From: Candidatus Stercoripulliclostridium sp.
GTDB lineage: Bacteria; Bacillota; Clostridia; Christensenellales; DTU072
DNA: 35,344 bases
Assembly: GCA_045594145.1 (NCBI GenBank)
Contig: JAZNYA010000147.1
Coordinates: forward strand, 1 to 35,344
Direction: 5' to 3'
The position numbers were made by a program, and so were the translations under genes. A model generated the notes under the pieces. It was not told the DNA's origin and made no database searches. It was given only the letters and a program-made list of their open reading frames with translations. Positions 7,052 to 34,189 of this stretch are shown one piece after another (the first letter of the stretch is position 1; every line of letters starts with the position of its first letter).

Positions 7052-7116
7052 ACTATTACTTCCTTTTTGGTTTATTTTTTTACTTTATCACTTTAGTTTG
7101 TTGAAGCGATGACTGT

Positions 7117-7225: not shown

Positions 7226-7259
7226 AAAGAAAAACCGCCACGATTTTCATCGTAGCGGT
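7226..7259 (-). terminator. Rho-independent terminator after the acetyltransferase gene
   Basis: Minus-strand hairpin of 11-bp arms with one mismatch and a 4-nt loop (7234-7259), followed by TTTTCTTT. Confidence 0.65.
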
Positions 7260-7264
7260 CGTCT

Positions 7265-18400: not shown

Positions 18401-19401
18401 GAAGCCAAGTAAACGTAATTCGCAATAGACGTATCCATATAGGGCATATCCAGTTTGCGAGATATCATCATCATTGCACTAAATCTTGTAACAAAGTATA
18501 GAAGCACGTTAAAATTCAGTGCTTCTTTTTTGTTTTCCATTGTCTCCTTATCGCCATAATAAGCTAATAAAAATCTATTGATTTCACCATCGGTCAAAAG
18601 AGTGGGATAATGCACCAAATAGGAAACTAAATCAAATTCCGGATTATTGTAGGTGGAAAGTTCCCAATCGTAAAGCTTAATAGACGGAGTCGTCGTCATG
18701 TTGTTTATTGTCAAATCCCCGTGACACACGCACCTACCAAAAGACGCCATTTTCTCATACGTTTTGCCATAGTCTTCGGCAAGTTTTCTTGCCTTTATGA
18801 GAAGCTCGTTAGGAAAAGCAGGAAAAACTTTTTTCACGCTCTCTATTAAAGCAAGCGAGAGCTCCTTCGCTTGCAAGTAGTCTTCCTTAACGTGAACGTT
18901 TGCTCCCACTTTAACGGCATCTTCCAAGCGTGGATATTCTCCATGTATTTTCTTTAGTAGTTCAGCAAGCTCTTCGTCCTTCGGTTCCCTAGAAATCTCC
19001 AGCTTTTCCATGATGACTATTGAACGTGTTTTATCGCTTTGGGCTCCGTAAATCTTTGGTAAGGATTCCTTAACAACGCTAAACGCAGAATACACCTTTT
19101 GCTCTCTTACTACACTATCTCTAATATAAAAAATGTATTTGCCCTTTTTATAATGCTTAAAAAACTCTTCCGAACCAAAATAGTTCATAGCATCGCCAAC
19201 GTTACTTTCAAACTGTCTCGACTTCATTTTTACGACGTATTCTCGTCCTTCTACAACGGCCTTCAATAAGGTTTCTTCTCCGCCGTCTTCCAATCGTGCA
19301 GTCATATTTCCCGTAGCTTTAAGTCGTTCCAAGGTTACTTCGCTACGGGTATTTAGCACTCTTTTTATGAAGTCTTTTATTTCGTCTTTAGAGTATATCA
19401 T
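18385..19401 (-). CDS. Choline/ethanolamine-kinase- or aminoglycoside-phosphotransferase-type small-molecule kinase
   Basis: 338 aa. Catalytic loop CHGDLTINNM (HGDxxxxN, Brenner motif). KLYDWELSTYNNPEFDL resembles the IDWEYxxxNxxxFDL choline-kinase motif. The ATG overlaps the upstream gene by 14 nt. Confidence 0.75.
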   Translation of the reverse strand: MIYSKDEIKDFIKRVLNTRSEVTLERLKATGNMTARLEDGGEETLLKAVVEGREYVVKMKSRQFESNVGDAMNYFGSEEFFKHYKKGKYIFYIRDSVVREQKVYSAFSVVKESLPKIYGAQSDKTRSIVIMEKLEISREPKDEELAELLKKIHGEYPRLEDAVKVGANVHVKEDYLQAKELSLALIESVKKVFPAFPNELLIKARKLAEDYGKTYEKMASFGRCVCHGDLTINNMTTTPSIKLYDWELSTYNNPEFDLVSYLVHYPTLLTDGEINRFLLAYYGDKETMENKKEALNFNVLLYFVTRFSAMMMISRKLDMPYMDTSIANYVYLASYLGK

Positions 19402-21697
19402 CTTCGTACTTTTCTATGGTTGCCATAAGCTCTAGGTATGCTTGGTATACGAGTTTTCCAAAAGAACTATCATCACGAAGCAATAGCTTTTCTACCGAAC
19501 GATAAAACTCGGCAACGTCCCTACTTACTCCCCTTCTCACTTCTATGAACTTCTTTGCAGAAAGAATATTAATTCTCCTTATGCGATAATAATGTTTCAA
19601 CTTGTTTTCGTTCAATAGATGTGCCTTATACGATACAAAACATTTTCTCCAAGAAAGTTCCCCGTCATCGTAATAAGGAATTTCTATATCCGTCCTATCG
19701 TCGTTATAATACCTTAACGCCATACCACAGTTTAGGAGAGCAAATTTCTCATCCGCTATCATTTCGTCGTAATACTTTTGCTCGTCGTTTTCATCTCCGC
19801 AAGCTAAAAGAGAATGCAGGCAAAGTATACGCATCGTCACGTCGGTGGTGCCTTCATAAATCTTCCTTACGAATCTTGCAACCTTTTGGAATCTATTAAG
19901 CCTATGCAAATGGTTAAAAATAGACAATACTTTGACGTAATCGTTTTCTTCTACGTCTTCATACAAATCCACCAATGCATCATAAACGTCATCCACACCT
20001 TCTTCTTCAAAGACGTCTGTTATAAAAGCGTTTATTTCCTTGTTGAAAGTGCGGTCGAGCATATGGCCAACTTCCCTTTCTTCCAAAACTCTATCCACGA
20101 AATCTCTGGCGATTAGATATTCCTTGAACATTTCATGAACAAAGGTTAAAACCCCGCTTTCATTTTCTATTGTGAAAATGTCAAGCATCACCCTAACGTC
20201 TCTTTCTTCAAGGTAAGTTTCTTGTGCAATCTTTTCTGCAAGCTTTTCTCTCGTGAGCAATCTCTTGCGTGTCGTTGAATATAGTTTCCAAGCAAGACTC
20301 TTTAACGCAACGTTTCCTTCTTCCGTCGTTAACGCAAGCATCTTCTTTTCTCGTTCACGCTTTATAATTCTACCTATTATACCACCCAGCGTGCTAGACA
20401 CCTTTAAAGAAAGATTTTCATCTACATCATCAAACTCTGCCGTGGCAAGATAGTAAGTGAGCACTAGCACTTTAGAGAATATTTTTTGACCTTTAATTTT
20501 ATCCACTATGAGCTTTGCTTCTTCTTCATCACAGCCACGTGCCTTAAGCAAAAAGTTGACGGCATATTTGCCTATTTCCCTTTCTCCAAATGGTTTAACT
20601 TCTATTACACTGTTTACTTTTGAAGAAACTTCATCGACGTAGAATCCCTTAAAACACGTAGTTCTCATGGACATAATGAGCGTGCTTTTTTCGTTAATGC
20701 CAAGTATCGCTTCTGTTATTAAACTAGAGTTTAGCTCACTGCTTTTTTCATCGAGAGCATCATAAAGATAAAGCGGGGACGTGTTTTTGCAAAAGGCTTT
20801 TAGTACTTCTGCATCCACCTTTAAAGATGCTTGTTCTACTATGTCGCCTATCACTTTTTCATAATCGAATTCCAGCGTTTTAGCACTGTTCAGGCTCTTG
20901 AATATTGGTATTTGGTTGCCTAGTTCCCCATTTAGTGCCTTTTCTGCATATTCCTTAAACAACCTATACATTAGGGTGGACTTACCGCTTCCACTCTCGC
21001 CGTGGAGCACGCTAACGCTACCTTCTTCCAATAGCACTTCGTTTAGGTCGTCAAAATACGGAGCACCATTTAAATATAGCTTTGGCTCTACAAAATACTC
21101 ATTTACTATGGTATCCATCTTCATTATTAAGGTGGAACCGGAGTGTGCCTTTTTAAGCCTTTCTATTTCGTATTTGATTATTTTTTCTTTTAGTTCCTTG
21201 TGCTCTAAGATTACCGGTTTGCTTTCGTCCAAACCAAGAGCTTTTAATAGCACGCCTTCGGTATAATCGGAGTAGCTTCTTGCACCTTCATAGGTTATAT
21301 AATCGATGTAATAAATCCTTTCCGCTCTTTCCTTTCCGAGCAGTTTTTCAAGGAGTTCTTTCTTTTCCGCATCCCAAGAAAAGCTCTTATGTGCTACCGC
21401 TAGTATGTTTTTATCCGGGTAACAAAGCACCGTTTTTAATTCATATAAAACTTCATCATTTTCACGGGTAAGGCCGTCTATAAAATAGTCGGTAAGGACG
21501 ATTATAAAGGTGGAGCATTCGTCTATTGCCCTTTCTTCTTCCTTCCTATAATTAGTGCCGTAAACACGATTTCTTTGCGAAGAAAAATAGGTGTTCTTGC
21601 CTTGCCTATCGCTGAGCGTACGGAAAATTTCGGCACCTATCGCACCGCCTAGTTCGGCATCGCCCCTAAAGCAAACGAAATATTCCGTCTTATTCAT
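19388..21697 (-). CDS. TIR-like domain fused to a NACHT/STAND P-loop NTPase with a helical C-terminal (sensor?) region
   Basis: 769 aa.
- aa 1-~135 have a TIR-like pattern (YFVCFRGDA...FIIVLTDYF...EVLYELKTVL).
- Walker A is VLHGESGSGKSTLMY (nt 20975-21001).
- Walker B is PLYLYDALDE.
- A sensor-1-like LIMSMRT follows.
- The C-terminal ~300 aa are alpha-helical-looking with no obvious repeats.
AGGGGAA RBS. Confidence 0.7.
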   Translation of the reverse strand: MNKTEYFVCFRGDAELGGAIGAEIFRTLSDRQGKNTYFSSQRNRVYGTNYRKEEERAIDECSTFIIVLTDYFIDGLTRENDEVLYELKTVLCYPDKNILAVAHKSFSWDAEKKELLEKLLGKERAERIYYIDYITYEGARSYSDYTEGVLLKALGLDESKPVILEHKELKEKIIKYEIERLKKAHSGSTLIMKMDTIVNEYFVEPKLYLNGAPYFDDLNEVLLEEGSVSVLHGESGSGKSTLMYRLFKEYAEKALNGELGNQIPIFKSLNSAKTLEFDYEKVIGDIVEQASLKVDAEVLKAFCKNTSPLYLYDALDEKSSELNSSLITEAILGINEKSTLIMSMRTTCFKGFYVDEVSSKVNSVIEVKPFGEREIGKYAVNFLLKARGCDEEEAKLIVDKIKGQKIFSKVLVLTYYLATAEFDDVDENLSLKVSSTLGGIIGRIIKREREKKMLALTTEEGNVALKSLAWKLYSTTRKRLLTREKLAEKIAQETYLEERDVRVMLDIFTIENESGVLTFVHEMFKEYLIARDFVDRVLEEREVGHMLDRTFNKEINAFITDVFEEEGVDDVYDALVDLYEDVEENDYVKVLSIFNHLHRLNRFQKVARFVRKIYEGTTDVTMRILCLHSLLACGDENDEQKYYDEMIADEKFALLNCGMALRYYNDDRTDIEIPYYDDGELSWRKCFVSYKAHLLNENKLKHYYRIRRINILSAKKFIEVRRGVSRDVAEFYRSVEKLLLRDDSSFGKLVYQAYLELMATIEKYEDDIL

Positions 21698-22475
21698 TTT
21701 CGCATTCCCCTACCATTTGTTCTATTTTCTTTGCACAATCCATAGCATAACTCAAATACTCGTATTCGTCTTTCGTCTTACTTGCATCTTTAGAGCCGTG
21801 AACTTCCAGCGTTATGCCCTTAATAAGTGGCATCTTTGCAATCCTAGAACATATTTTTGCCCAGTCACAGTTGCCTTCAAAAGGCATATAGTGGTCGTCG
21901 GTTTTACCAAAGTTATCGTGAAGGTGTAGTAACGCCACACGATTAATGCACTCTAAAACGTCAAAGTCATTGGGATAATAAATGTTATGGTGGCCGGCAT
22001 CATAGCAAACCTTCACGCTCTCCGGCATCCTTTCCATAACGCCCCAAAAGTAATCTAGTCGCCTTAAGTTTTCTATGCATAGCGTAAGACCACATTTTTC
22101 GTAATATTCCGCAACCTTTAGTATGCGGTTAAACCCGATTTCACTCATGGGCGGTGGTTCCGGGCTCGAAGAAATATGCATGGTTAGTTTATCTACTCCT
22201 ATGCTTTTTGCATAGTCCGCCCCTTTTATCATTTGTGAAAAATAAAAATCACCACGCTCTCCGGACAACCATAAATCGTTAACAACGTTCCTAAATGGAA
22301 GATGTATACTTTCTACTTCCAACCCGCTTTTTAGAGCAAAGTCAATTTCGTCATAAAAACTAGGCGTACGTTCAAAAAGTGCCATTACCCCATCAAAGCC
22401 CACTGCTTTAACGAGTTCTACACTGCGTTTATAATCGCCTTCAAAGCCATAATAAAAAGATATGTTCTTTTTCAT
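21690..22475 (-). CDS. Xylose-isomerase-like TIM-barrel protein (sugar-phosphate isomerase/epimerase / AP-endonuclease-2 fold)
   Basis: I place the start at ATG 22475 (MKKNISFYYGFEG), which has GGAGAAAAA upstream and an ATGA overlap with the upstream stop. Metal-ligand pattern typical of the fold: ...ESIHLPF..., ...LTMHISS..., ...LCIENL..., ...CYDAGHHN..., ...LHLHDN..., ...ITLEVH. Confidence 0.75.
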   Translation of the reverse strand: MKKNISFYYGFEGDYKRSVELVKAVGFDGVMALFERTPSFYDEIDFALKSGLEVESIHLPFRNVVNDLWLSGERGDFYFSQMIKGADYAKSIGVDKLTMHISSSPEPPPMSEIGFNRILKVAEYYEKCGLTLCIENLRRLDYFWGVMERMPESVKVCYDAGHHNIYYPNDFDVLECINRVALLHLHDNFGKTDDHYMPFEGNCDWAKICSRIAKMPLIKGITLEVHGSKDASKTKDEYEYLSYAMDCAKKIEQMVGECENE

Positions 22476-22999
22476 TTTTTCTCCACTAAGCACGCCCAGT
22501 CTTTCATAAGTTTTTCTAACGTATACGTTGCATTTGCCGGCGACGTTGACGGCAGACACACCGCTTCTATGCAAAGCGAAGGCAAAACGTATTTATCGTA
22601 ATACTTTTTTGCCGTTTTACCATTAACGAAAATTCTCTTAACGTTAGAATTGTTTAGTATTATCGTCAAATCGTTCGGCTTAACGTTTCTTATTGAACTA
22701 TCACTGGAGCCCACGATTTCGCAACTTTCTATTACGTCCCATACCGCAATCCCTAAGGATGATAAGAGTGCTTTTTTCTCGCTCACGCTACTTGGCTCTT
22801 GTTTGCCATCGAGTCTTGAAAGCACCTTCCAAAACCTATTTTGTGGATGTCCGTAAAAGAAGCTTTGCTCTCTTGATTTGACCGACGGAAAAGAACCTAG
22901 CACGAGAACTTGGGAGTTTTCGTCGTATACGGGTGGTATGGGATGATGAATAAGTTGATACCTTTCGTCTTTATCCGTTTTATCTTTCCGCTTTGCCAT
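22472..22999 (-). CDS. UDG-superfamily DNA glycosylase, hypoxanthine (deoxyinosine)-DNA-glycosylase-like
   Basis: 175 aa. VLVLGSFPSVKSREQSFFYGHPQNRFWKVL matches the GSFPSxxS...FYYxHPxNRFW signature I associate with family-6 'DNA-deoxyinosine glycosylase'. A C-terminal LPSTSPAN motif-B-like segment is present. Confidence 0.7.
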   Translation of the reverse strand: MAKRKDKTDKDERYQLIHHPIPPVYDENSQVLVLGSFPSVKSREQSFFYGHPQNRFWKVLSRLDGKQEPSSVSEKKALLSSLGIAVWDVIESCEIVGSSDSSIRNVKPNDLTIILNNSNVKRIFVNGKTAKKYYDKYVLPSLCIEAVCLPSTSPANATYTLEKLMKDWACLVEKK

Positions 23000-23052: not shown

Positions 23053-24096
23053 CTAGAGATATATCTTTTCAAAAGCGTACGTATCTTCTACGCTAACGGC
23101 TAGAGCGTTTATAGTTGTGAGCGTTACGCTGGGGCTAACGTCTTTCGGCATCCAAGCAGAATAACCGCTTGGAGACGAAAGTTGATAATATCTTCCTTCG
23201 TAATACGAGCATAAATCGTTTCCGTGTTGATGTCCGCAAGAAATGAGCGTAAGCAATTCTTCACCGGCAAACATATTATCTAAAATTGCGTTTTTGGGTA
23301 TCGAAGAATAGGAATCTGAGAGCCTTTTTGGCATATTTTCGTACTCCTTCCCGTTTTCATAAGCATCTTCAAAGGCAGGTGTTTGCATGTGCATAAAGAG
23401 TGACGTGCGAACCCCACGACGTATTATTTCTTCCTTTAAACGTGCCACTTGGCTTTCTCTAAGATGGTCGTAACTTCCGGTGATTTTCGGTTTTCTCATA
23501 CCGCTATCCATAAACGCAAGAGTATGCACCCTTTCTCCGCCACGGGTTACGTCAACGCAAAATTGCAAGTCGCCGTATATTCCTTCCACGTTTCCCGCAA
23601 GAAAGTGCTCGTAGCGTAACATATATGCTATCACGTCTTGGTTAGAGCCGTCTATTTCACCATCGTTGTTGCCGGGCGTAAAAGTCCACGGTACGTCGTA
23701 TTCTTCCACCAATTGACAAATCTTCTTTATTGCGTTCTCCTTGTCGTAAGCGGGATTTAGACTGAACCCTTCAACCAGGTCTCCGGCAAGCACTATGAAG
23801 TCAACGTCCGTCTTATTAAGGATGCTTTTGAGTCCTGCAAGCGTCTTGACGTCATCCGCTGTTTCACCATTTAGAAGGTGCGTGTCATTAATCTTAAGAA
23901 CCTTTAGAGTGCCGTTTTCATCCGTCTCTACAGAGTAGTTATAACCAGCATAAATTTCGTCATAATCATCTTCCAGCGGTAACTTGTTCGTCCAAGCTCT
24001 ACCGCCTACGTAAGCTCCAAACGAAGCCCCCGCAACAGCGATTATAACGAGTACAATGATTAATATTTTTCTTGTGTCACACTTTGATATTTTCAT
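23053..24096 (-). CDS. Membrane-anchored calcineurin-like metallophosphoesterase
   Basis: N-terminal TM helix (ILIIVLVIIAVAGASFGAYVGG). Metallophosphoesterase motifs appear in order: INDTHL (DxH), LAGDLVEG (GDxxE/D), GNNDG (GNHD/E variant), CGHQHGN (GHxH). AAGGAAG RBS. Confidence 0.85.
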   Translation of the reverse strand: MKISKCDTRKILIIVLVIIAVAGASFGAYVGGRAWTNKLPLEDDYDEIYAGYNYSVETDENGTLKVLKINDTHLLNGETADDVKTLAGLKSILNKTDVDFIVLAGDLVEGFSLNPAYDKENAIKKICQLVEEYDVPWTFTPGNNDGEIDGSNQDVIAYMLRYEHFLAGNVEGIYGDLQFCVDVTRGGERVHTLAFMDSGMRKPKITGSYDHLRESQVARLKEEIIRRGVRTSLFMHMQTPAFEDAYENGKEYENMPKRLSDSYSSIPKNAILDNMFAGEELLTLISCGHQHGNDLCSYYEGRYYQLSSPSGYSAWMPKDVSPSVTLTTINALAVSVEDTYAFEKIYL

Positions 24097-24111
24097 ATCG
24101 TTCTTCCTTTA

Positions 24112-25269
24112 TTACAACAACTTTACGGTATATCCGCCAAACGAATACACGGGTTGGTCCTGCCTTACGCCACGTGGACAAAAGTCCGTAGTGATAATTT
24201 GCGAACCGCACTTTTCCGCTAGAGCATATCTTTCTTCGCTTACCTTGGGGTAATGGTCGGCACGAGTTCTCACTATATAGTTACCACTTTCAAAAACGTC
24301 CTTTCTCTTTATCGTCTTTTTGGGATTGTTGTCAATTATAAACGATGCGTATTCTCTTTCTCTTTGCTTATATAAGAGCGACGGAAACATTGCTTGCGTA
24401 CGTAAAGTATCGTCACGAGCGACGTAGTCTTCCGTCATTTTTGTTTCATGAAGTATGACGACGATTTTGCCCAGCATATCATTGAGTGCCATCCAGCTAT
24501 TGTCTTCTCTCATTTCTTTGAAGGTTTCGTAAGAGCCCAGCATATCTCCGGGAGTAATGAGCTTGTCGCCCAACTTTTCTTTTAGAAGTGCATCAAAGGC
24601 ATCCGCATGCTCTATTCCAAATATTTTTAATTCGTCAAGTGGGGCTACGTCTTGCTTGGCTTCTATTATGATGCTTATTGGTAAATGCCCTGGGTTGTGG
24701 TTAGACCACATAACTATTTCTTCCAGCGTGGTTGCAAAATCCAAGCAACTGGTCGCACTATCGAAAACGGGTTTATGCATGACGGTAAAGGTCGTTTGCG
24801 TGCCTGTTTCTTTTGCTTCTACGTCTATTTCTATGCTCCTAATACCATTTTCAAATTGCATGGTAAGAGTGTCGTTTACAAAATCGTTTTTATTAAAGTT
24901 TTTTAAGCCCAACGCAAGAATCTTAAATGGTAATTGGAAATCCTTGGTTGCTTCCGTTGCAAGCCGTTGATAGCTATTATGGGTAGCCAAAAATGCAACT
25001 TCGTTATACTTAACTCCGCTTTCTAATGCTTGTGCCAAATCAAAATTACAAAAGGTTTGTTCCCCTTTTGGCGTATAATTCTTATAAAACTCGTTCTTTA
25101 AATAAGCCATATGCTCGGCTTGGAAACGCTCGTTGTCTACCTTGTTTAACGCATAAACGTCTTTTGCATATTCCCATAAACCTATGGAAACAGCTCCTGC
25201 AACAATCACCACAGAGACAACGACAACAACTACTATCTTTATAATTTTCTTAAGTAAATCTCGGTTCAT
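24112..25269 (-). CDS. Membrane-anchored PLC-like phosphodiesterase (Ca2+-dependent PI-PLC-like TIM barrel)
   Basis: N-terminal TM helix (IVVVVVVSVVIVAGAVSIGLW). FLATHNSYQ and NGIRSIEIDVEAK resemble the HNSY / G-x-R-x-hEhD motifs of the PI-PLC X-domain superfamily. Confidence 0.65.
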   Translation of the reverse strand: MNRDLLKKIIKIVVVVVVSVVIVAGAVSIGLWEYAKDVYALNKVDNERFQAEHMAYLKNEFYKNYTPKGEQTFCNFDLAQALESGVKYNEVAFLATHNSYQRLATEATKDFQLPFKILALGLKNFNKNDFVNDTLTMQFENGIRSIEIDVEAKETGTQTTFTVMHKPVFDSATSCLDFATTLEEIVMWSNHNPGHLPISIIIEAKQDVAPLDELKIFGIEHADAFDALLKEKLGDKLITPGDMLGSYETFKEMREDNSWMALNDMLGKIVVILHETKMTEDYVARDDTLRTQAMFPSLLYKQREREYASFIIDNNPKKTIKRKDVFESGNYIVRTRADHYPKVSEERYALAEKCGSQIITTDFCPRGVRQDQPVYSFGGYTVKLL

Positions 25270-25283
25270 TTTTTACCATTGTA

Positions 25284-26315
25284 CTATTCGTCAAACTTTA
25301 TATTTTTAAATAGGTCTCCAAGAGTAGCCTTCGGCATTTCGGTTACGTATTCTTTAATACCTGTCTTTGATGCCTTTCTTTCCTTATATCTTTTTGCCAA
25401 ATCATCGTGGTTTACCTTCAAGATATCAAGAAACTTTTCTCTGGACATGAGCTCAAGTTTGCCGTTTTTAACTTCTTCCATCACGAACATTTCTCTTCTA
25501 TCAAGCACGTCGTCTTCTTCCATTTGCACAAAATAATGGCACTCTTTAAGATTTGTTTCGTATCTGCAATTGTGCTTTGAAAGAATATGAATTAGTTCCA
25601 GGGTTTCTTCAAAGTAAGCGTTTTCATACGTCATGCTAAAGCACAACTTTTTGTCCGTCAATTCGCTTTGGATGGGCTTTCCTTTTTTATGCAAACTCCT
25701 TGCTAGATTTTTAATTTCGTGTTGCTTGTTAAGCATACTACTCGTTTGTGACTTACCGCAAATGCTCGGTATCTTTTCTTCTACGTCCTTCAACTCCACG
25801 CCGGATTCACCGGCAAGTTTTTGTATCAATTGACAAACCAAGTAGGAATCTTCATCGCTTCTATGCAAAAATACGGGCTTTTTCAAATTGTATTTTTCTA
25901 TCGCCCTTTCAAGTGAAATGTTGCCGTATTCCTTGTGGACGTATTCGCTAAAAGCTTGGCTATCAACAAAAGAGAAATCTATTTCGTCAAGTCCGTAACG
26001 TGAACAAGCGACTCGCAAAAACTTACAGTCGTTTTCGCCGTCGTGTGCCACGTTAACCATATCGGGCGACTCCAACAATTCTTTGATTTTATTATAATAA
26101 AACGGGAAAGTTGCACACATTTTATAGTAAACTTCCGTGTAATACAACTCTATTCCCGGCCTTCCACGCCTTTCGAAGACTTCAAACCTTGATTCCGGAT
26201 TCATCGGTATGACTTCTCGTTTAAGCACGTTGTAGTTTTCATCCGTTATGACGTACCCAAACTCGCACATACGCAAGCCATCAGAACATTCAATATCAAA
26301 AAACAAATATTTCAT
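25284..26315 (-). CDS. DEDDh 3'-5' exonuclease (DnaQ-like) with a C-terminal BRCT-like segment
   Basis: Exo I is FFDIECSD, Exo II is VAHDGENDCKFL, and Exo III is HRSDEDSYL (H-x4-D). aa ~215-265 (KKLCFSMTYENAYFEETLELIHILSKHNCRYETNLKECHYFVQ) have a BRCT-like pattern, but this is low confidence. Confidence 0.8.
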   Translation of the reverse strand: MKYLFFDIECSDGLRMCEFGYVITDENYNVLKREVIPMNPESRFEVFERRGRPGIELYYTEVYYKMCATFPFYYNKIKELLESPDMVNVAHDGENDCKFLRVACSRYGLDEIDFSFVDSQAFSEYVHKEYGNISLERAIEKYNLKKPVFLHRSDEDSYLVCQLIQKLAGESGVELKDVEEKIPSICGKSQTSSMLNKQHEIKNLARSLHKKGKPIQSELTDKKLCFSMTYENAYFEETLELIHILSKHNCRYETNLKECHYFVQMEEDDVLDRREMFVMEEVKNGKLELMSREKFLDILKVNHDDLAKRYKERKASKTGIKEYVTEMPKATLGDLFKNIKFDE

Positions 26316-26395: not shown

Positions 26396-26424
26396 GATAA
26401 AAAAGACGCTATATAGCGTCTTTT
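26396..26424 (-). terminator. Rho-independent terminator ending the vWA/kinase/PP2C operon
   Basis: AAGACGC-tatata-GCGTCTT hairpin followed by TTTTTT on the minus strand. It is nested inside an outer AAAACCGA...TCGGTTTT complementarity. It lies 21 nt after the PP2C gene stop. Confidence 0.75.
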
Positions 26425-26444
26425 TCCCTTTCGGTTTTAAGAGA

Positions 26445-28772
26445 TTAGTAGTTATACTTTTCAAGCATGGTTTCTAATTCTACCAATATTCTCTTCACTT
26501 CTTCTACGTCAACGTTTCTTGTTGCTCTATATAGGGCAAGTCTCTTGACGTTAAAGCATCTATCTATGACGCTTTGTGTACTTGCCTTGAAGGCTTCCAT
26601 TATTTCATCAAAAACAGCTTCCAGTTCAACTTGAAGTTCACTTGCAGTAACTTCTTCGTCTGCAACGCTTACGTTTAAGCCGTATTTTTGAATTTCTTCT
26701 TCCGTAAAATACTGCTCGACGTTCTTTATGAACGATTCCAAGCACTCCTTCAAGCCATCATATTCAGTTTCCAAGTCTTTTTGAGCACGTTTTAACTCGT
26801 TTTCCTTCTTGGTCTTTTCAAATCCAAGCTTATTCAAAGAACTTTCCGCCGTCTTATATTCTCTAATAGACTTTTCCAGATTATCATATATCTCGCCGTC
26901 CATTTGGAAGATAAACTTAGGTCTACCAAACATGGGCACTTCCTTTCTTTCCCAGTATTGTATAATCTTTCTGAGCTGTTTTAGAGTTTCTTGATAATCT
27001 CTATGATTCTTTTCGCTTGCACGAATAGCCCCTTCTTGTTGGAACCTATAGTTGTCGTTTTCGTTCAACTTTACCGGGCTACGAGAGATTATGCTCTTAC
27101 CTTCGCTGATTCTTCTACTGCATTCTTGTGCAAAGGCTTCCAACAATCTTATTCTTCCTTTAACACCAAAATATTTGCGTCCGTCCTTGCCGAGAACTGA
27201 ACCCCTATTGACAAGTTCATCACCCGTTTGTTCAGCTTCTTTCTTATCGTTTTCCCACTGAGCCATATTCATATCGATTTTTTGAATTTCGCTTTTCGTG
27301 GATGCGATTTTAGCTTGTAAGTCGGTTATAGTGGAAAGCTTTTTATCAAGTTTGGGGAACTGCTTCCTTTGTTCAGCTAGCAATACCATGGCGTCTATCT
27401 TGCCGTTTTTAAAGCAATCTATAAGTTCATTACACTTTGCTTCTTGGGCTCTTTCCAGCCTTTGAGCTTTTTCTTCCTTTTTGAACTCTTTAAGGTTTTC
27501 AAGAACGTCCTTTGTGCCTTGGGTTACTACGGCATCGTTACTATCCGTTAACACCGCACTTGCAACTTCTTGCAATATTCTTTCTTTTACGTCTTGGGCT
27601 CTTTCTTCAACGTATGCTTTTGCATCGACGCTACCATCTATTACAGAGAACAAGTCTTTGTTTGCAAAGTAATCTTTTTGGGCTTTAACAAGCTTATTAT
27701 ATTCTTCTTCAACAAAGTACGTATTTTTAAAGCCTTCAAACTCATCGAAAGCGACAAAAGAAATACTGCAGTCATCGTGGGTGGTGGGCTTGTATTCAGC
27801 ATGCCATAGTTGAGCAAATTCTTCAAAGGATTGGGCTTCCTTTAGAGCCTTTAGCATAACTTCTTCTACGCCGATATTGTCGATAGGGTCAAAAGGGTCG
27901 AAGAAACCGTCGCTACAAGCGAATATCGCACTGCCTTTGGGAAGCTTGTATGCCTTATAACGCAATATAGTATTTGTACCACGTCCTTTGCTGATGGCAA
28001 ACAAGTTGTTGATGGCTCCGGAGTTATCTTCGTCGTCAACGGTTAGTTGTACTAATCCTTTGCCGGGAATTAAAGCGTGTCCCCTAGAGTCGCCTGCCCA
28101 TATAACTTCCACGTTTAGACCATCTTCCATTTCTTTATACCTTATTGCAACCAACGTAGTGGGCAAAATGGATTGGCCTGATATTTCTGCGTCTTTGAGT
28201 TCAAAGCCTTTTTGGGTATCGAGTAATCCTTGATATACGAATTTAACCAGCTTTGCTCTTTCGATTTCATTACTTAAATCCATGTCGCCATTTGTTCTAA
28301 GGTAATAAACGGTTCTTGCAATAGCAATACGAGAACCCCAGAGAGCCGACGTATCCGATGCTTCGTCAGACATGGGTTTTACCATTTCATCTATCCAGCT
28401 TCTAAACTCTTCATCTAGTTCCTGTTTATCAAGCTCGCTTCCTTCCGCTTCGTTTATAACAGTTTCTTTGCCTTCGCTAATTACTTCTTCCAAAACTTCT
28501 ACGCAAGTTTCCTTTTCTTCCAAAGCCACAACTTCTTGTTTGTTAGAATCGGTCTTTTCCGTAAAATATTCGGGTAAAAAGGTGGTTTTTAGCGTTTCTG
28601 CAAAATCGCCCTTTTTGCATTGCTCTTCTATTACGTGAACAAAAGAGCCGGAGCCACCCAAGCCATCCGCTACTGCGATTAGTCCGCTTTTTTCTTCGGC
28701 ATCTACGTAAACGTACGGCTCAGCGTCTTCATTTTTTTGTACTTTGTAAAATCTAAAATAGTTAGTACTCAT
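26445..28772 (-). CDS. PP2C-family Ser/Thr phosphatase fused to a ~430-aa predicted coiled-coil tail
   Basis: 775 aa. All four PP2C metal-binding motifs are present: VADGLGGSG, WAGDSRGH, FACSDGFFD, THDDCSISFV. There is an acidic insert (aa ~75-125). aa ~343-775 are heptad-like and rich in K/E/Q. AAGGAAG RBS lies 9 nt after the kinase stop. Confidence 0.8.
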   Translation of the reverse strand: MSTNYFRFYKVQKNEDAEPYVYVDAEEKSGLIAVADGLGGSGSFVHVIEEQCKKGDFAETLKTTFLPEYFTEKTDSNKQEVVALEEKETCVEVLEEVISEGKETVINEAEGSELDKQELDEEFRSWIDEMVKPMSDEASDTSALWGSRIAIARTVYYLRTNGDMDLSNEIERAKLVKFVYQGLLDTQKGFELKDAEISGQSILPTTLVAIRYKEMEDGLNVEVIWAGDSRGHALIPGKGLVQLTVDDEDNSGAINNLFAISKGRGTNTILRYKAYKLPKGSAIFACSDGFFDPFDPIDNIGVEEVMLKALKEAQSFEEFAQLWHAEYKPTTHDDCSISFVAFDEFEGFKNTYFVEEEYNKLVKAQKDYFANKDLFSVIDGSVDAKAYVEERAQDVKERILQEVASAVLTDSNDAVVTQGTKDVLENLKEFKKEEKAQRLERAQEAKCNELIDCFKNGKIDAMVLLAEQRKQFPKLDKKLSTITDLQAKIASTKSEIQKIDMNMAQWENDKKEAEQTGDELVNRGSVLGKDGRKYFGVKGRIRLLEAFAQECSRRISEGKSIISRSPVKLNENDNYRFQQEGAIRASEKNHRDYQETLKQLRKIIQYWERKEVPMFGRPKFIFQMDGEIYDNLEKSIREYKTAESSLNKLGFEKTKKENELKRAQKDLETEYDGLKECLESFIKNVEQYFTEEEIQKYGLNVSVADEEVTASELQVELEAVFDEIMEAFKASTQSVIDRCFNVKRLALYRATRNVDVEEVKRILVELETMLEKYNY

Positions 28773-28781
28773 TTTCTTCCT

Positions 28782-30386
28782 TTATATAAATTGCATTATT
28801 TTGATGTATCCTATGTTGACAATCGATTCTTTTTCCGTTCCGTCAACCATATGAACAACTCTATATTTGTGTTGACCGCCTTCATCAACTCTTTCTATCT
28901 TGGCAACGTTTCTCTTAGCAAGATTTGCTTGATTGTATGCACTTCCGTGTTCCGGCCAAGGCGTATCCGCATCGATAGTAACGGTGGCAACGGCTTTAGG
29001 CTTTGCAATACCACGGCTAAGAAGTCCTTGCCTGCTGGTCGTATAACCCTGTCCGCCTATCGTTCTTATAAAATAGAACTTCTTAACACCTAAGTCTTTG
29101 GGCTCGACTGCGACTATGCCAAGCTTTGCTATTTCGTCTGCAGACACAAGCTCAATAGTCTTTTCATCTTCCGGGAAAAGAACTCCCAGCGTTATGGGTT
29201 TTGCCTTTGCGAAGCCCTTTTCTATTAGCTCTTCGATAGTCAACCTTTGCTCGCTTCCGTCCGCCATCTTGATAGCGTACTTATAAGCACCGGCATCATA
29301 TACCTTTTTGAATCCCTTGACGTTCTTGGCTTTTAGCTCGTCTTTGTCTAAATCTTCAACTACGTTCTTGTGAAGGCTGTGAAGTTCTAATTCGAACTTG
29401 GAGCTGGTTCCAATACCATTAAAGTGGTCGCTTACGTCCAACCTATCGCTAAGTGCTTCTATTACTTGTTCGGCAGTCGGTCTCATTGCGAAATCTTTTT
29501 CCAACATCCAACCTAGTAGTGCCGTGAACTTACAATCGTTGTTAGAACCAAGCGATACGTCGAACTTAGAGTCTAGCTTAATGGGCGTTCCCATATATAC
29601 CGCTTCGCCAACAGGACAATCGTCACCAACTACCACAGGGAAATCTCCCGTCCATAGTCTATGGAAAATTAAAGCAAGAGTAAAGATGTCCGTCTTATTG
29701 GTAATTTGCGACTCGTCCGTTTCTTCGCCTTCTTCGTTGTTGAAGTTGTTTATTGCGATTTCAGGACTTTGGTATCCCGGGGAGAATACAACGGGTAGCT
29801 TAAGTAGTGGCATACCATCGGCTCCCTTTCTTACGCCATAGTCGCTGGGATAAGACGAATCAAAGTCGATTAGGTACGGAACAAGCACTCCCGAATTGTC
29901 TTGGATTAATACGTTCTTTTCCTTCAAGTCCCCGTGCGTTACGCCCGCAACGTGTGCCTTTTTGATTAACTCTGTAATATCCAAACAAAGCTTAACGAAC
30001 GTGGCTTGGTCTAGTGCCGTATAGTCAACGTTTTGAGCTTCGTTGGGGATTGCACGAGTTACCGTGGTAAACATATTGTCATCCCAAAAGTTTTCTTCTT
30101 CCGTTACGATATGGTCCTTATCAATAGTTATTCCCGCTCTGGAAAACAACCTACGGATTTCTTCTTGCTTTGTCGTCAAGGAATCGGCTATTGCCTTTTG
30201 CTCGGAATATATTGGTTCCGGGATGGTGCGAGAAGGCAATCTCGGACCCATCGTATACCTTTTAATGAAATACTTTTGACCGCCGTATTCACCAATTACA
30301 AACGCTCCGTTACCGGTAACCTTCCAATTGATTACGCCATCGACGACGTCTGCGGGATTTATTTCATATTTAGAATGATATTTCAT
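28782..30386 (-). CDS. Hanks-type Ser/Thr protein kinase with a triple-repeat C-terminal domain
   Basis: 534 aa. Gly-rich loop TGNGAFVIGEY, Lys in YFIKRY, catalytic loop THGDLKEKN, Mg-binding DFD, GYQSPE (APE-like). aa 350-530 contain three ~45-aa repeats. AAAGGAG RBS. Confidence 0.85.
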   Translation of the reverse strand: MKYHSKYEINPADVVDGVINWKVTGNGAFVIGEYGGQKYFIKRYTMGPRLPSRTIPEPIYSEQKAIADSLTTKQEEIRRLFSRAGITIDKDHIVTEEENFWDDNMFTTVTRAIPNEAQNVDYTALDQATFVKLCLDITELIKKAHVAGVTHGDLKEKNVLIQDNSGVLVPYLIDFDSSYPSDYGVRKGADGMPLLKLPVVFSPGYQSPEIAINNFNNEEGEETDESQITNKTDIFTLALIFHRLWTGDFPVVVGDDCPVGEAVYMGTPIKLDSKFDVSLGSNNDCKFTALLGWMLEKDFAMRPTAEQVIEALSDRLDVSDHFNGIGTSSKFELELHSLHKNVVEDLDKDELKAKNVKGFKKVYDAGAYKYAIKMADGSEQRLTIEELIEKGFAKAKPITLGVLFPEDEKTIELVSADEIAKLGIVAVEPKDLGVKKFYFIRTIGGQGYTTSRQGLLSRGIAKPKAVATVTIDADTPWPEHGSAYNQANLAKRNVAKIERVDEGGQHKYRVVHMVDGTEKESIVNIGYIKIMQFI

Positions 30387-30406
30387 TGCTACTCCTTTAA
30401 TTATCT

Positions 30407-31105
30407 TTAGCTTTGAGAACTAGCACTTGCACATAGGATTTTGAGAATACCATCAAACGAAACGTCTGACATACCTTTATCGGCTACTACCGGTTGGAAC
30501 GATGACCTATTAAGCACTCTTGCAAGGTCTTCATACTTTGAACCGGCGGGAGCAAACATAACGATTCTCTTACCCCTTTCCGTCATCTTGTTTGCATTAC
30601 CGAGCTTACAGAACCAGGTGTTGATTAAGGCGTCTTGGGTCAATCCGGTAGGATAACCCGTTCTTGCATCCTTTTCACCAAACCCTATAGCATCGGTATC
30701 GGTAAACAATACGATAACTTGTCTGTCGTTGGTGCCCTTTGCCTTGAACTCTGTCGTCATTGCTGATTGAAGAGCTTCTAGGCCACTTTCTTTTTTGTCT
30801 CCGCCACCTATTGCTTTGATGCCGTTAAGATATCTTTCGAAATCATAATCTTCATCCGGGAGTTCGAAGAATCTGCTCTTTACCAATCCTTCTACGTCGC
30901 ATTCTAGGTCACGGAATACTATAACCTGCACTCTCAACATATCTACGTCACTGTTATAATCGTTTACTATACTTTGATAAAAGTCTTTGTAGAACGTTCT
31001 AGCGTGATTTCTGATATTATCGATACACGGTCCCATACTACTAGTTCCGTCTATGCAGAAAACTATATCGATATTTCTTCCTTTTCTTAGTTGGTTAAAT
31101 CCCAT
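30407..31105 (-). CDS. Cytoplasmic vWA-domain protein (paralog B of 32066..32782)
   Basis: 232 aa. MIDAS-type IDIVFCIDGTSSM, GGGDKKESGLEA, VLFTDTDA. No signal peptide. About 45% identity by eye to the vWA at 32066..32782. AAGGAG RBS. Confidence 0.85.
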   Translation of the reverse strand: MGFNQLRKGRNIDIVFCIDGTSSMGPCIDNIRNHARTFYKDFYQSIVNDYNSDVDMLRVQVIVFRDLECDVEGLVKSRFFELPDEDYDFERYLNGIKAIGGGDKKESGLEALQSAMTTEFKAKGTNDRQVIVLFTDTDAIGFGEKDARTGYPTGLTQDALINTWFCKLGNANKMTERGKRIVMFAPAGSKYEDLARVLNRSSFQPVVADKGMSDVSFDGILKILCASASSQS

Positions 31106-31115
31106 TATTTTCTCC

Positions 31116-31976
31116 TTAAGCGTTGTTACCTGACTTTCTTAAAATGTCTGCTATTTGAGCAAACGTGCTGGTTAATTGTGCACTGCCACCGGTGGGCGGA
31201 CCGTTTATGGTTCTCATTTTCGATAGCGAATATTCATCAGCACCCGTTATACCAACAGCCATAATTTCCGCATCTCCTTTTGCCAGCACGGCATCTCTTG
31301 CCCTTATAGCTGCATTTAAATCGAAGAATTCACCGTCTGTTACAAAGATGATGAAAACCGGATTCTTTGCTCTCATTACGTCTGACCTGATGTAATCAAA
31401 GGGGCTATCTGCACAAGTTCCACCACCAACGTTACAATTATCGTTTTCATACGTTCTTAAAGCGGAACTTATTTTCGATACGCTGTTTTCGCCTTTGAAT
31501 AGATACGTTGCACTATTTGCCCAAGGAACAAAACTATAAGTATTATTCATATCTTGTAGCTGTTGTACCAGCGAAGTTACAGCCCTTGATGCTTCACGTC
31601 TATCGCTCGTTGACATACTGCCAGATGCATCCATCAAAAAGTAAACGTCGAAAGCTCCGGTGTTGTTTTTAACAATTTCCAAGCCCGAACAATATAAGCA
31701 TTGGTACCATAGTTCGCCTTTCTTAACGGGACAACCCCTGCTCTTATCGCACGACATGGGCGTTCTGCTGTTGGTCGTTGCACAACTCTTTAGGTGGCTA
31801 GATACTTCCGGAAGAGCGTCGTTAAAATCGGTATTGATTTGACTTGCTATAGCATCGTCGATATCATAGAAGTTAACTACTTGGTCTCTTCCGTTGTTTT
31901 TATCTATTGTTACAAGTCCGTATTTTTTGGACTTGGGGCAATACGTTTTAACGTATTTTTTGTTATCTGTGCTCAT
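31116..31976 (-). CDS. vWA-domain protein (TerY-like DxSGS MIDAS) with a Cys-rich N-terminal module
   Basis: 286 aa. aa 1-~100 carry 6 Cys including CLYC. The vWA part has VYFLMDASGSMS, VGGGT and IFVTDGEF. AAGGAGA RBS. Confidence 0.8.
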   Translation of the reverse strand: MSTDNKKYVKTYCPKSKKYGLVTIDKNNGRDQVVNFYDIDDAIASQINTDFNDALPEVSSHLKSCATTNSRTPMSCDKSRGCPVKKGELWYQCLYCSGLEIVKNNTGAFDVYFLMDASGSMSTSDRREASRAVTSLVQQLQDMNNTYSFVPWANSATYLFKGENSVSKISSALRTYENDNCNVGGGTCADSPFDYIRSDVMRAKNPVFIIFVTDGEFFDLNAAIRARDAVLAKGDAEIMAVGITGADEYSLSKMRTINGPPTGGSAQLTSTFAQIADILRKSGNNA

Positions 31977-32065
31977 CTTTTCTCCTTGTTTGCCGACCTG
32001 CTGACTATCTTTAATCGGATTTCCTTTTCTTCTTTAGAAATTTTGTTTTGACTGCCTATCGTACG

Positions 32066-32782
32066 TTATGAAGCTGCACTTGCAGATGCTACAACAATCT
32101 TTAGGATTTCATCAAAGTCGATATCCGCAAGACCTGCATCCATTTGTACGGGCTTGAATACGCTACGATTGAATTCTGCTTGCATGCTTTCGTAAACCGT
32201 TCCGGCGGGAGCAAACATGACGAGTCTCTTGCTTCTTTCTTTGAGCGAGAATTCGCTTTGTCCCAGGAAGTCGGGGCGAGTGCCGTACCAAGCTTTTACG
32301 AGACCATCTTTATCGACCATGTTCTTAGGATAGTCTGCAGAAGTTTCTCTTGCCTTCAAGGGTACTGCATCGGCGTCGGTGAAGAGAACTATAACTTGTC
32401 TGTCCTTGTCGCCTTTTGCGTTCCACTTGGAAGCCATTGCGGTAAAGATGGCTTCTAATCCGTTTTCGGGATCGTCGCCACCGCCGTCTGCGATAATACC
32501 GTTAAGATGCGTTTCATAATCGGCATCGTCACCGGCAGTAATATCGAACCAACGGCTCTCTACCATTGCGTTGACACCATCGCATTCATAGTCACGGAAA
32601 GTGATAACCTTTAAGTTCAAAGAATCGACGACACTACCGGATTCCGTCATTTTTTGAACGAAGTCTTGGTAGAATTTCTTCGCATTGCTCTTAACCTTAT
32701 CAAGACACGGGGTCATGCTTCCGGTTCCATCGATGCAGAAAACGATGTCAATGTTTCGTGATGCGTTACTATTTAGTCCCAT
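32066..32782 (-). CDS. Cytoplasmic vWA-domain protein (paralog A)
   Basis: I place the start at ATG 32782 (MGLNSNASRNIDIVFCIDGTGSM), which has AGGAGA 8 nt upstream. The 31 upstream codons in the track ORF run through the 5'UTR and promoter. MIDAS-type DGTGS, GGGDDPENGLEA, VLFTDADA. Confidence 0.85.
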   Translation of the reverse strand: MGLNSNASRNIDIVFCIDGTGSMTPCLDKVKSNAKKFYQDFVQKMTESGSVVDSLNLKVITFRDYECDGVNAMVESRWFDITAGDDADYETHLNGIIADGGGDDPENGLEAIFTAMASKWNAKGDKDRQVIVLFTDADAVPLKARETSADYPKNMVDKDGLVKAWYGTRPDFLGQSEFSLKERSKRLVMFAPAGTVYESMQAEFNRSVFKPVQMDAGLADIDFDEILKIVVASASAAS

Positions 32783-32846
32783 TTTTTTAATCTCCTTTTT
32801 GGGTTTTTTATTTTTCTTTTTTGGGCTTTCCCGCCCTTGTGAGTAT

Positions 32847-32875
32847 AGTATAGCATTGCGGTATACCCGAGTCAA
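32847..32875 (-). promoter_or_regulatory. Promoter of the vWA/kinase/PP2C operon
   Basis: Minus-strand TTGACT (32870-32875), 17-nt spacer, TATACT (32847-32852). The predicted 5'UTR is ~58 nt and begins with a GGGC-gggaaa-GCCC hairpin. Confidence 0.55.
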
Positions 32876-33021: not shown

Positions 33022-33047
33022 AAAAAAACAGGTCCCATATGAGACCT
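33022..33047 (-). terminator. Rho-independent terminator downstream of the HTH gene
   Basis: Minus-strand AGGTCTC-atat-GGGACCT (7-bp stem including one G-U pair) followed by GTTTTTTT. Confidence 0.65.
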
Positions 33048-33182: not shown

Positions 33183-33521
33183 TTATTCTTCAAAAACAAC
33201 CACTTCATCTATACTTACATCTGCAAGTTGGCAGTAGAATAATAGGTCTTCGTATGAAACCATAGTCTTATTTCTTTCCCAATTGTTAATTACGCTTTCC
33301 GAAACGTTAAAAACTTCTGCGAGTTCGGCTCTACTGATGCTGTTGTCCATTTCATATCTGCATTCATCGCAGTTTTCACTACATTCTTCCAAGTGTAGAG
33401 CTAGTTCTTTGCATACTCTTTTACGCAAAGTAATATTATCTTTTCTTAATAAATATAAATTTTTGCTTGTCTTTTTCCAATCTATAACGTATTTTCTTTT
33501 CATCTTTCGTTTCTTCTCCAC
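33183..33521 (-). CDS. XRE/Cro-C1-type HTH protein with a Cys-containing insertion
   Basis: 112 aa. The HTH core is ISRAELAEVFNVSESVINNWERNKTMVSYEDLLFYCQLADVSIDEV. The usual first helix (KNLYLLRKDN) is separated from the core by ~35 aa containing ECSENCDEC. The track start is GTG 33521; an alternative ATG lies at 33503. Upstream promoter is TTGAAA-17-TAAAAT. Confidence 0.6.
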   Translation of the reverse strand: MEKKRKMKRKYVIDWKKTSKNLYLLRKDNITLRKRVCKELALHLEECSENCDECRYEMDNSISRAELAEVFNVSESVINNWERNKTMVSYEDLLFYCQLADVSIDEVVVFEE

Positions 33522-33645
33522 TTAAAGTACGTATATTATTTTATCATATTTATATTACGTTTTCAATACCCAATTTCCACCATCCACGCAACTTTAATTA
33601 TGCTTTCTAGCGTAGGGCTATAAGATGACTTTGGGAACAAACTAT

Positions 33646-33671
33646 AAAAGCACCGCTTTCGCAGTGCTTTT
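33646..33671 (-). terminator. Hairpin terminator after the vWA-like remnant
   Basis: AGCACTGC-gaaa-GCGGTGCT (one mismatch) followed by TTTT on the minus strand, 4 nt after the stop at 33675. Confidence 0.55.
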
Positions 33672-33674
33672 AAA

Positions 33675-33875
33675 TTAAACCTTCACCCTTGCGACCTTAC
33701 CCCAAGGCGGTGTGATGCGGTCGTTGTTTATTAGCCATAGAACCGGAATATCGTTAGTTAATTTTTCAGGCGGAAAGTCTGCTACGCCGTCCGTCAAGAT
33801 AACTATACTGGTCGGCTTTTCTTCCATTTTATTCGTGCTCATTTTACTAAACGTTATGTACCATAAATGCATCAT
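33675..33875 (-). pseudogene. Probable 3' remnant of a VWA-like (DUF2201-type) gene
   Basis: The 66-aa ORF ends in SIVILTDGVADFPPEKLTNDIPVLWLINNDRITPPWGKVARV. This matches my memory of the C-terminus of VWA-like/DUF2201 proteins (..TDG..FP...P.LW......PPxG..). No MIDAS-containing N-terminal part and no RBS are present. Confidence 0.35.
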
Positions 33876-34189
33876 CTTTCGACATATTTCGCATTATATG
33901 GCAACGAAAACTATACGCATGGGCGTGACTCCGCCCACAACGGCTTAAGGTTATATTCTGTTGTTTTTGTGGTTAAAAAATAAAGTGATGTTAGTCCTAA
34001 CACGCTCGCTTTTTTGGGCGTGCGAGATGTATTCTAGCACACGTTTTTATATTTGTAAATAGGGTTTTTAAAAATTTTTCATGTTTCTTTTCATCTCCTA
34101 CCACAATTATACTCTAATTAAAACATGGTTTTCAATGGCATTATCACTTGCATTAGACAACTTTTTTGCAAAAAATACAAGTTTTGGGC

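Follow-up and report, generated by a model that had tools for sequence, protein, structure and literature searches.

Introduction

Gene sets that combine a von Willebrand factor A (vWA) protein with a Ser/Thr kinase and a PP2C phosphatase are widespread. In the threonine-phosphorylation pathway of the Pseudomonas aeruginosa type VI secretion system (T6SS), the kinase PpkA, the PP2C PppA and the FHA reader Fha1 switch on secretion. In TerY-P, a TerY-like vWA protein is encoded with a PP2C and a Ser/Thr kinase whose C-terminus is either a zinc ribbon (the 2012 definition of Anantharaman, Iyer and Aravind, and the CoCoNuT operons) or an OB fold (the systems of Gao et al.) (PMC11090510). TerY-P-like modules have been reported to be anti-phage, the OB-fold versions acting as stand-alone systems (Gao et al., 2020, as summarised in PMC11090510), and duplication of the vWA gene also occurs in TerY-P-containing CoCoNuT operons (PMC11090510). 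The Escherichia coli triad consists of YegL (vWA), PphC/YegK (PP2C) and YegI (a eukaryote-like Ser/Thr kinase), of which kinase and phosphatase have been characterised biochemically (10.1101/819920), and the same three domains are found together in chromosomal operons whose function is unknown or stress-related (10.1101/819920; 10.64898/2026.01.23.701218; PMC11090510). Finally, the kinase-kinase-phosphatase system (KKP) of Pf prophages is a toxin-antitoxin defence in which inhibition of the phosphatase by a phage protein unleashes a toxic kinase (PMC11341870). Here we compare with these systems a five-gene operon from Candidatus Stercoripulliclostridium sp., carried on a 35,344-nt stretch of DNA that we call the window (assembly GCA_045594145.1, contig JAZNYA010000147.1, positions 1 to 35,344), which a preliminary description had taken for a TerY-P-type operon without ter genes.

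Our results reveal that the operon is one of a rare, unnamed, accessory family of mobile modules carried by uncultured bacteria of the gut. In this module, an active-looking kinase and PP2C are predicted to be co-transcribed with one to four small vWA proteins bearing a metal ion-dependent adhesion site (MIDAS), beside an apparently dedicated XRE regulator. Reading from the genes, we put at roughly 45% the probability that the module is an accessory, horizontally moving cytoplasmic phospho-switch with a role in conflict or defence, similar to TerY-P in design and separate from it in lineage. We infer that this role would be directed against phage.

Results

Five genes form a predicted operon

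The open reading frame (ORF) listing gave five consecutive, tightly spaced genes on the minus strand between 26445 and 32782, in the order vWA-A, vWA-B, vWA-C, kinase and PP2C, with intergenic gaps of 89, 10, 20 and 9 nt. The operon, its parts and the regulator gene beside it are:

32066-32782, minus strand: vWA-A gene, 238 aa counted from ATG
31116-31976, minus strand: vWA-B gene, 286 aa
30407-31105, minus strand: vWA-C gene, 232 aa
28782-30386, minus strand: kinase gene, 534 aa, stop codon at 28782-28784
29442..30386, minus strand: Hanks-type Ser/Thr kinase domain, residues 1 to ~315 of 534, with a Pkinase match
28785..29390, minus strand: three tandem PW-EH repeats of ~60 aa each, alpha-beta-beta-beta-alpha, kinase residues 333-534
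26445-28772, minus strand: gene for the PP2C with helical tail, 775 aa
27738..28772, minus strand: PP2C domain, residues 1-345, with a disordered insert at 74-116
26445..27737, minus strand: helical/coiled-coil tail of ~430 aa, phosphatase residues 346-775, stop codon included
32847..32875, minus strand: promoter-like site TTGACT-17-TATACT with TG upstream of the -10, 10/12 matches, ~60 nt 5′ of the first start codon
26399..26426, minus strand: terminator-like hairpin of 12 bp with a T-run, 19 nt past the phosphatase stop codon
33183..33521, minus strand: XRE-family helix-turn-helix (HTH) gene, 106-112 aa, HTH_3 4.1e-8, with its own promoter-like site and terminator-like hairpin (33030-33047)

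Positions and gaps agree with the preliminary description, which had placed five minus-strand genes 9-89 nt apart, each behind an AGGAG-type ribosome-binding site. A Shine-Dalgarno sequence precedes every start, and is of the AGGAG/AAGGAG type except before the phosphatase gene, where it is AAGGAA. The vWA-A start is the ATG at 32782, which follows AAGGAG and is also the start annotated in L001, a 99%-identical metagenomic contig; the TTG at 32875 was rejected as a start, being part of the -35 hexamer of the proposed promoter. That promoter, earlier assigned to the operon as its own, is present as a site and is plausible by position alone, because promoter-like sites as a class are no commoner in the AT-rich region than chance would give (28 versus 23.6 ± 5.5 in shuffles). 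Terminator-like sites numbered 17 versus 9.6 ± 3.4 in shuffles, and the terminator claimed downstream of the operon was recovered as a hairpin and T-run at 26426..26399. An Rfam search of the window returned no RNA family.

The module recurs in uncultured gut bacteria

We recovered 158 homologues of the phosphatase and 175 of the kinase, all from metagenomes or metagenome-assembled genomes (MAGs), with annotations that go no further than 'hypothetical protein', 'protein kinase' or 'VWA domain-containing protein'. When each GTDB species was represented by one genome, ~35 of the 185,579 genomes scanned were carriers. All were gut or rumen MAGs of Clostridia, with a few Bacilli and Anaeroplasma, and they include Stercoripulliclostridium, Coproplasma and Christensenella. 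We found no family members among PLSDB plasmids, GenBank phages or IMG/VR contigs.

ORF clustering over 32 non-redundant loci gave the following anatomy:

Kinase: 32/32 loci
PP2C with helical tail: 32/32 loci
A/C-type vWA: 31/32 loci, 57 copies, one to four per locus
Zincin of ~310 aa (range ~280-330 aa): 25/32 loci
XRE-type HTH homologous to window 33183-33521: 16/32 loci
vWA-B: 5/32 loci

The zincin is a metallopeptidase with an HExGH motif and weak ATLF/M90 similarity. Its gene mostly lies directly 3′ of the phosphatase gene, often overlapping the stop codon, and in a few loci upstream of the vWA genes (examples are L008 12052-12987, L010 12501-13415 and L005 6694-7563, with 22 further loci). 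It is missing from the window locus, whose A-B-C layout is a minority subtype shared with L014, L015, L017, L018 and L022; L017 and L018 retain the zincin, located upstream. The XRE-family HTH protein is likely to be a dedicated regulator of the module.

Genomic contexts are unrelated from one relative to another: the module lies beside the S10 ribosomal operon, near AbiH and an N6-MTase/Eco57I gene (L012), or near coupling proteins. Restriction-type neighbours, as in L012, occur in only a few relatives. A TraG/VirD4-type coupling protein of type IV secretion systems (T4SSs) was present within 10 kb in 9 of the 32 loci, with serine recombinases nearby, and directly adjoins the module in L005, L008, L012, L020, L021 and L047. 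The 102 immediate neighbours include four TIR_2, two DUF4231/SLATT, three viperin-like radical-SAM and six BspA-type leucine-rich repeat (LRR) proteins, as well as matches to SspH, AbiLi, DrmD, PtuA and HerA. These contexts are the signature of accessory mobile cargo among immunity genes, not of a core locus. The survey of homologous operons that the preliminary description had proposed yielded 32 loci with shifting contexts, and the distinct subtype it had suspected proved to be a separate accessory family.

Kinase and phosphatase are expected to be active

The kinase matched Pfam Pkinase at 53.6 bits (cut-off 31.7). In an alignment of 37 sequences, K42, E96, H151-G-D153, K155, N158, D174-F-D176, S207-P-E209, D233 and R302 were invariant. 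By eye, no hydrophobic membrane-spanning segment was seen in the kinase sequence. The best-scoring defence models for this protein, MkoA, PD-T4-6 and mad6, matched its generic kinase core, far under their family cut-offs.

For the phosphatase, Pfam PP2C_2 scored 22 bits, just under the cut-off of 24. An alignment-based AlphaFold model (predicted local distance difference test score, pLDDT, 87.6) matched bacterial PP2C structures in Foldseek (E ~1e-8, probability 1.0), among them tPphA, PppA, PstP and Stp1; for tPphA, E was 3.3e-8 and the TM score 0.70. The PP2C fold is confirmed at the level of this model. Residues ED15-16, DGLGG, GDSR, SDG and DD333-334, including the metal-binding Asp, were invariant among 42 aligned homologues. 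Since the catalytic residues are invariant in both alignments, kinase and PP2C should both be enzymatically active. The invariance also bears out the earlier statement that the catalytic and metal-binding motifs are intact.

The remainder of the phosphatase, described earlier as a coiled coil of ~430 aa, is indeed predicted to form long helices over residues 345 to 775, mostly with pLDDT above 85. Structure and profile searches with this tail returned generic coiled-coil or helical-bundle matches only. A score of 17.7-19.1 bits for TelA lies below the cut-off and was rejected as evidence of kinship, the other matches being generic coiled coils.

The kinase carries a rare mobile domain

The triple repeat that the preliminary description had noted at the end of the kinase is real. 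A structure model of residues 322-534 (pLDDT 89) consists of three alpha-beta-beta-beta-alpha units, each with the PW-EH motif, and the units match one another with hhalign probabilities of 96.6-98.3%. The repeat also fits the description of a novel-looking appendage, as it had no match in Pfam, none among PDB structures at E ≤ 0.001, and chance-level matches only when its profile was compared with PDB sequences. In BFVD we found one borderline match (E 9.3e-4, TM 0.12); the similarity to phage repeat proteins of homing-endonuclease, AP2 and T5orf172 type was weak and uninformative. That the repeats bind DNA is no more than a lead.

A profile of the PW-EH unit retrieved 205 cluster representatives among 1.84 billion proteins, mostly kinases of the module's family, every one of which carries the repeats. 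Elsewhere, three copies stand at the N-terminus of P0257 (locus L029, 11560-15360), a PP2C-helical protein of 1266 aa from the same family; a MacB/FtsX-type permease carries the domain on its N-terminus, on the cytoplasmic side; and proteins of ~200 aa have a single copy behind a zinc ribbon. The carriers include P0298, P0328, P0338 and P0365. PW-EH is a rare mobile domain. Since both the kinase and a phosphatase carry it, we read it as a module shared for targeting or ligand binding. The surface protein P0247 was set aside as a carrier: its junction is abrupt, no other surface protein matched strongly, and it may be a chimera of assembly or gene calling.

The vWA proteins share a conserved serine-containing tail

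All three vWA proteins score above Pfam VWA/VWA_2/VWA_4 cut-offs. As described earlier, they are of two kinds: vWA-A and vWA-C are paralogues (49% identity) that flank the Cys-rich vWA-B. vWA-A is a stand-alone vWA protein (VWA_4, 38.2 bits). vWA-B (VWA, 40.9 bits) consists of a Cys-rich N-terminal domain of ~105 aa (31662-31976) followed by a vWA domain with the MIDAS DASGS. A MIDAS is present in each of the three, as had been claimed, and is the canonical DxSxS in vWA-B only, with DxTxS in vWA-A (DGTGS) and vWA-C (DGTSS). DxTxS is the norm for the family, in which 51 of 68 copies have DGTGS.

The 32-locus survey revealed a nearly invariant C-terminus in the A/C-type proteins, with the consensus ...DhDF..IIKIIAASAS(S/N)x(S) in at least 57 of 67 copies; in as many, [AC][AS]S[AVI][ASGQ] ends one to four residues from the C-terminus. 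In the window, the tails read ...KIVVASASAAS in vWA-A (32069-32089) and ...KILCASASSQS in vWA-C (30410-30430); loci L005-L048 have the tail at the equivalent position. We regard this AASAS tail as a candidate phospho-acceptor, because a conserved, Ser-containing C-terminus is encoded beside a kinase and a phosphatase. Alternatively, it could be a recognition or cleavage tail for the zincin.

Homologues of vWA-B form only 35 clusters, all of ~285-291 aa and all from metagenomes or MAGs; in the five survey loci that have it, vWA-B lies inside or adjoining the module. Against Pfam vWA-TerF-like, vWA-B scored 18.1 bits (cut-off 29.4), vWA-A and vWA-C had no match, and a few vWA-B homologues have a precomputed PF10138 (vWA-TerF-like) match. 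In L001 the vWA-B copy (6796-7647) is 283 aa long, with its last ~11 residues out of frame relative to the family consensus, while the window copy (286 aa) retains the consensus end ...LTSTFxxIAxxLKKxGNN. The deviant end is a frameshift or sequencing error in L001.

Neighbouring genes in the window

The window is chromosomal DNA. Its left half carries transporters, BirA/BioY and similar housekeeping genes. Rightwards from ~15.5 kb there follow genes for a WYL regulator, an FAD oxidoreductase, a cytidylyltransferase, an APH-like kinase and a NACHT NTPase, and then an AP-endonuclease-type TIM barrel, a UDG-family protein, a metallophosphoesterase, a PI-PLC, a DEDDh-like gene and the operon. Beyond the window's right end, L001 continues with a GH4 gene, a half-length ZacB-like protein, a DUF6361 protein and a large serine recombinase. 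The serine recombinase, an HTH protein, DUF6361 and the ZacB-like protein (PADLOC ZacB 1.1e-89) occupy L001 1-3594, ~2.4 kb from the operon, which suggests the remnant of an Azaca-type defence system and an island boundary.

Several features of this region deserve separate mention. The WYL-WCX regulator gene (15459-16436; PADLOC WYL 7.2e-28) lies between genes for a GH43 glycosidase and the FAD-dependent oxidoreductase, close to where the accessory-looking region has its left edge. L001 ends at the point that corresponds to 16445, so comparing it with the window places no boundary there. A tight minus-strand array at 18385-22999 encodes the APH-like kinase (338 aa), the NACHT/STAND NTPase (769 aa), the AP_endonuc_2 TIM barrel and the UDG-superfamily protein. 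Its ORFs overlap or abut, none matched a PADLOC model, and the array is possibly another uncharacterised conflict module.

The stretch from 23053 to 26315 encodes the metallophosphoesterase, a PI-PLC-like protein of the Ca-dependent type that has a hydrophobic segment in its N-terminal part, and a DEDDh-like exonuclease of 343 aa whose C-terminus is extended at length. We considered the DEDDh-like gene as a missing effector of the module and rejected it: it lies behind the terminator, has its own promoter-like site and is found in the window lineage only. A PI-PLC homologue is also present near the module in L014, on the opposite side. In a look-up of strain-level presence and absence that used the flanking PI-PLC protein as its anchor, every contig returned had the same gene arrangement.

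Relative to L001, the window carries a 533-bp insertion at 33621-34153. It contains terminator-like hairpins and a 66-aa ORF (33675-33875) that matches the C-terminal end of the vWA-like DUF2201 domain and is a gene remnant; we found no flanking repeats around the insertion.

In relatives, a trio of genes recurs near the module: a ~525-aa unknown protein, the TraG/VirD4-type coupling ATPase and an FtsK-gamma winged-helix protein (L008 2290-6681, L012, L020, L021, L047 and L010 15654-19744). No further T4SS genes were seen within 10 kb. The trio may be a fragment of an integrative and conjugative element (ICE) core or a system of its own.

Discussion

The module described here is conserved and wholly unannotated. 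It is not a new category; what marks it out is the combination of PW-EH repeats, a PP2C with a helical tail, vWA paralogues that end in the AASAS tail, the zincin and the XRE protein. It adds an unannotated system, with members now labelled 'hypothetical protein', to the accessory gene pool of uncultured gut Clostridia.

A model for the proposed phospho-switch is that the vWA proteins are phosphorylated by the kinase and dephosphorylated by the phosphatase, most likely at the C-terminal ...AASASxx tail. The triple PW-EH repeat would join the kinase with its substrate or trigger, and the helical tail of the phosphatase would do the same or build a higher-order complex, while the MIDAS faces of the vWA proteins may bind a partner or an invader protein. 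In a resting cell the phosphatase would dominate, and an invading phage or other mobile element would shift the balance to the kinase. The output in most relatives would be the zincin metallopeptidase. In the three-vWA clade without zincin, it would probably be the kinase activity itself, a toxic kinase with the phosphatase as antidote, as in KKP, or alternatively sequestration by the extra Cys-rich vWA-B.

In its most specific form, the model describes an undescribed immune or conflict family, borne on ICEs or islands, in which a kinase and PP2C targeted by PW-EH and a helical scaffold write and erase phosphates on AASAS tails, gating the zincin or, in the window clade, the Cys-rich vWA. This version is possible, and we would not bet on it. 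If true, gating through the AASAS tail would be the first concrete, testable mechanism for vWA-kinase-phosphatase triads, TerY-P included. Handles on the mechanism are the Ser-containing vWA tail, the PW-EH domain on the kinase and, in one relative, on the phosphatase, and the natural variants with and without zincin.

Several observations weigh against a phospho-switch in conflict or defence. Neither at the default threshold nor at E ≤ 10 did any of the three vWA proteins or the PP2C match a family in PADLOC-DB 2.0.0, which we take to contain TerY-P models. Of the PADLOC and Pfam check that had been suggested for the five proteins, the Pfam part succeeded for vWA and Pkinase, with PP2C_2 sub-threshold, and the PADLOC part gave nothing for vWA or PP2C. 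NCBIfam likewise produced only far sub-threshold kinase and PP2C matches. The window version has no recognisable effector, and the genes flanking it gave generic PADLOC matches only (DEDDh, WYL and a Rossmann motif). Enrichment of defence genes among neighbours across the family is suggestive only, as these are raw counts and the PADLOC matches at 1e-5 include generic domains. A link to MADS through six 'mad8' neighbour matches was rejected; these are probably the six BspA-type LRR proteins. Finally, for every member the function of the module is a prediction from its genes, and phosphorylation of the vWA tail and the roles given to the repeats and the helical tail are our interpretation of them.

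A role in host physiology or stress signalling, with no part in conflict, is unlikely. It would place the module with YegL-PphC-YegI of E. coli, with DRA0331-0334 of Deinococcus, or with the metal sensing first proposed for TerY-P near tellurite-resistance genes. Consistent with it, operons of the same triad with unknown or stress-related function are chromosomal (10.1101/819920; 10.64898/2026.01.23.701218; PMC11090510), MIDAS sites bind metal, and the helical tail has a weak TelA-like score. However, that score is under threshold and the tail otherwise gives generic helical matches, ter genes are absent, and the module proteins do not resemble the E. coli triad at family level. The very sparse and patchy spread of the module (~35 of 185,579 species, over Clostridia and Bacilli) and its shifting contexts with mobility and immunity neighbours also argue against host signalling.

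We think it rather improbable that the module controls a conjugative element. On this explanation it would regulate T4SS/ICE transfer post-translationally, as PpkA-PppA-Fha1 does secretion, with the XRE protein, and in relatives the zincin, acting like the repressor and protease ImmR/ImmA. The coupling protein within 10 kb in nine loci, usually accompanied by the ~525-aa and FtsK-gamma proteins, is in its favour, as are the T6SS phosphatase PppA among the best structural matches of the PP2C and the recurrence of an XRE HTH and a metallopeptidase with the module. However, 23 of the 32 loci have no coupling protein within 10 kb and the window has none in 35 kb; the 25 Pfam families that are commonest among the immediate neighbours include neither VirB4 nor relaxase nor any other T4SS family; an FHA protein is lacking; and the zincin resembles ATLF/M90 and not ImmA (M78). 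Moreover, adjacency to transfer genes is equally expected of cargo.

That the module is a bona fide, highly divergent TerY-P member (Gao et al., 2020) working exactly alike is very unlikely: it has the same three enzymatic and adaptor folds in one operon, and some vWA-B homologues have a precomputed vWA-TerF-like Pfam match, but the vWA and PP2C proteins lack a PADLOC match at E ≤ 10, the C-terminal domain of the kinase is neither zinc ribbon nor OB fold, gene order and number differ, and zincin and XRE are not TerY-P parts.

Comparison with known systems

The E. coli triad YegL-PphC-YegI resembles the module in that the same three domain types are encoded together. It differs in gene order and accessory domains. 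BLASTP of the module proteins against YegL, PphC and YegI found nothing (E > 0.2), the family kinase profile matched the catalytic core of YegI only (4.8e-6) and the family PP2C profile did not match PphC; kinship was rejected for want of family-level similarity.

The PpkA-PppA-Fha1 pathway shares the logic of kinase, PP2C and vWA, and PppA ranks among the closest structures to the PP2C domain. PpkA, however, is a membrane kinase with a periplasmic vWA domain in the same chain, whereas the vWA proteins of the module are separate polypeptides. The pathway also requires an FHA reader and T6SS genes; neither the annotated ORFs of the window nor the commonest families of neighbours in the loci surveyed include an FHA-domain or T6SS family.

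Likeness to MADS is confined to the kinase core, which scores 39.4 bits against MAD6 (NF047741; cut-off 460). None of the partner genes of MADS, PD-T4-6 or Mokosh belongs to the module.

With TerY-P, the module shares a stand-alone cytoplasmic vWA/MIDAS protein, a Hanks-type kinase and a PP2C in one operon, and accessory or conflict-type neighbourhoods. In contrast to TerY-P, its kinase ends in three PW-EH repeats, its phosphatase has a helical tail of ~430 aa, its vWA genes number one to four and have a conserved AASAS tail, and a zincin and an XRE regulator recur with it; the module is without ter genes and restricted to gut Bacillota MAGs. TerY-P is characterised by linkage to ter (tellurite-resistance) genes or to restriction or DNA-processing systems. 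The lack of ter genes in the window had been stated before, and we found no Ter-family domain at E ≤ 0.001 in the scanned window ORFs of at least 110 aa. The preliminary assignment to a TerY-P-type operon therefore holds for the vWA/kinase/PP2C triad without ter genes, and fails on the missing PADLOC match and on the kinase C-terminus. We conclude that the module resembles TerY-P in design, is a separate lineage, and lies outside the TerY-P definition, so that it is not filed as a member.

KKP, too, opposes a Ser/Thr kinase to a phosphatase, resides on a mobile element and works as a toxin-antitoxin-type anti-phage switch. It differs in having two kinases and no vWA proteins, and in residing in a prophage of Proteobacteria. 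By this analogy of design, KKP would be the best mechanistic precedent for the effector-less variant in the window.

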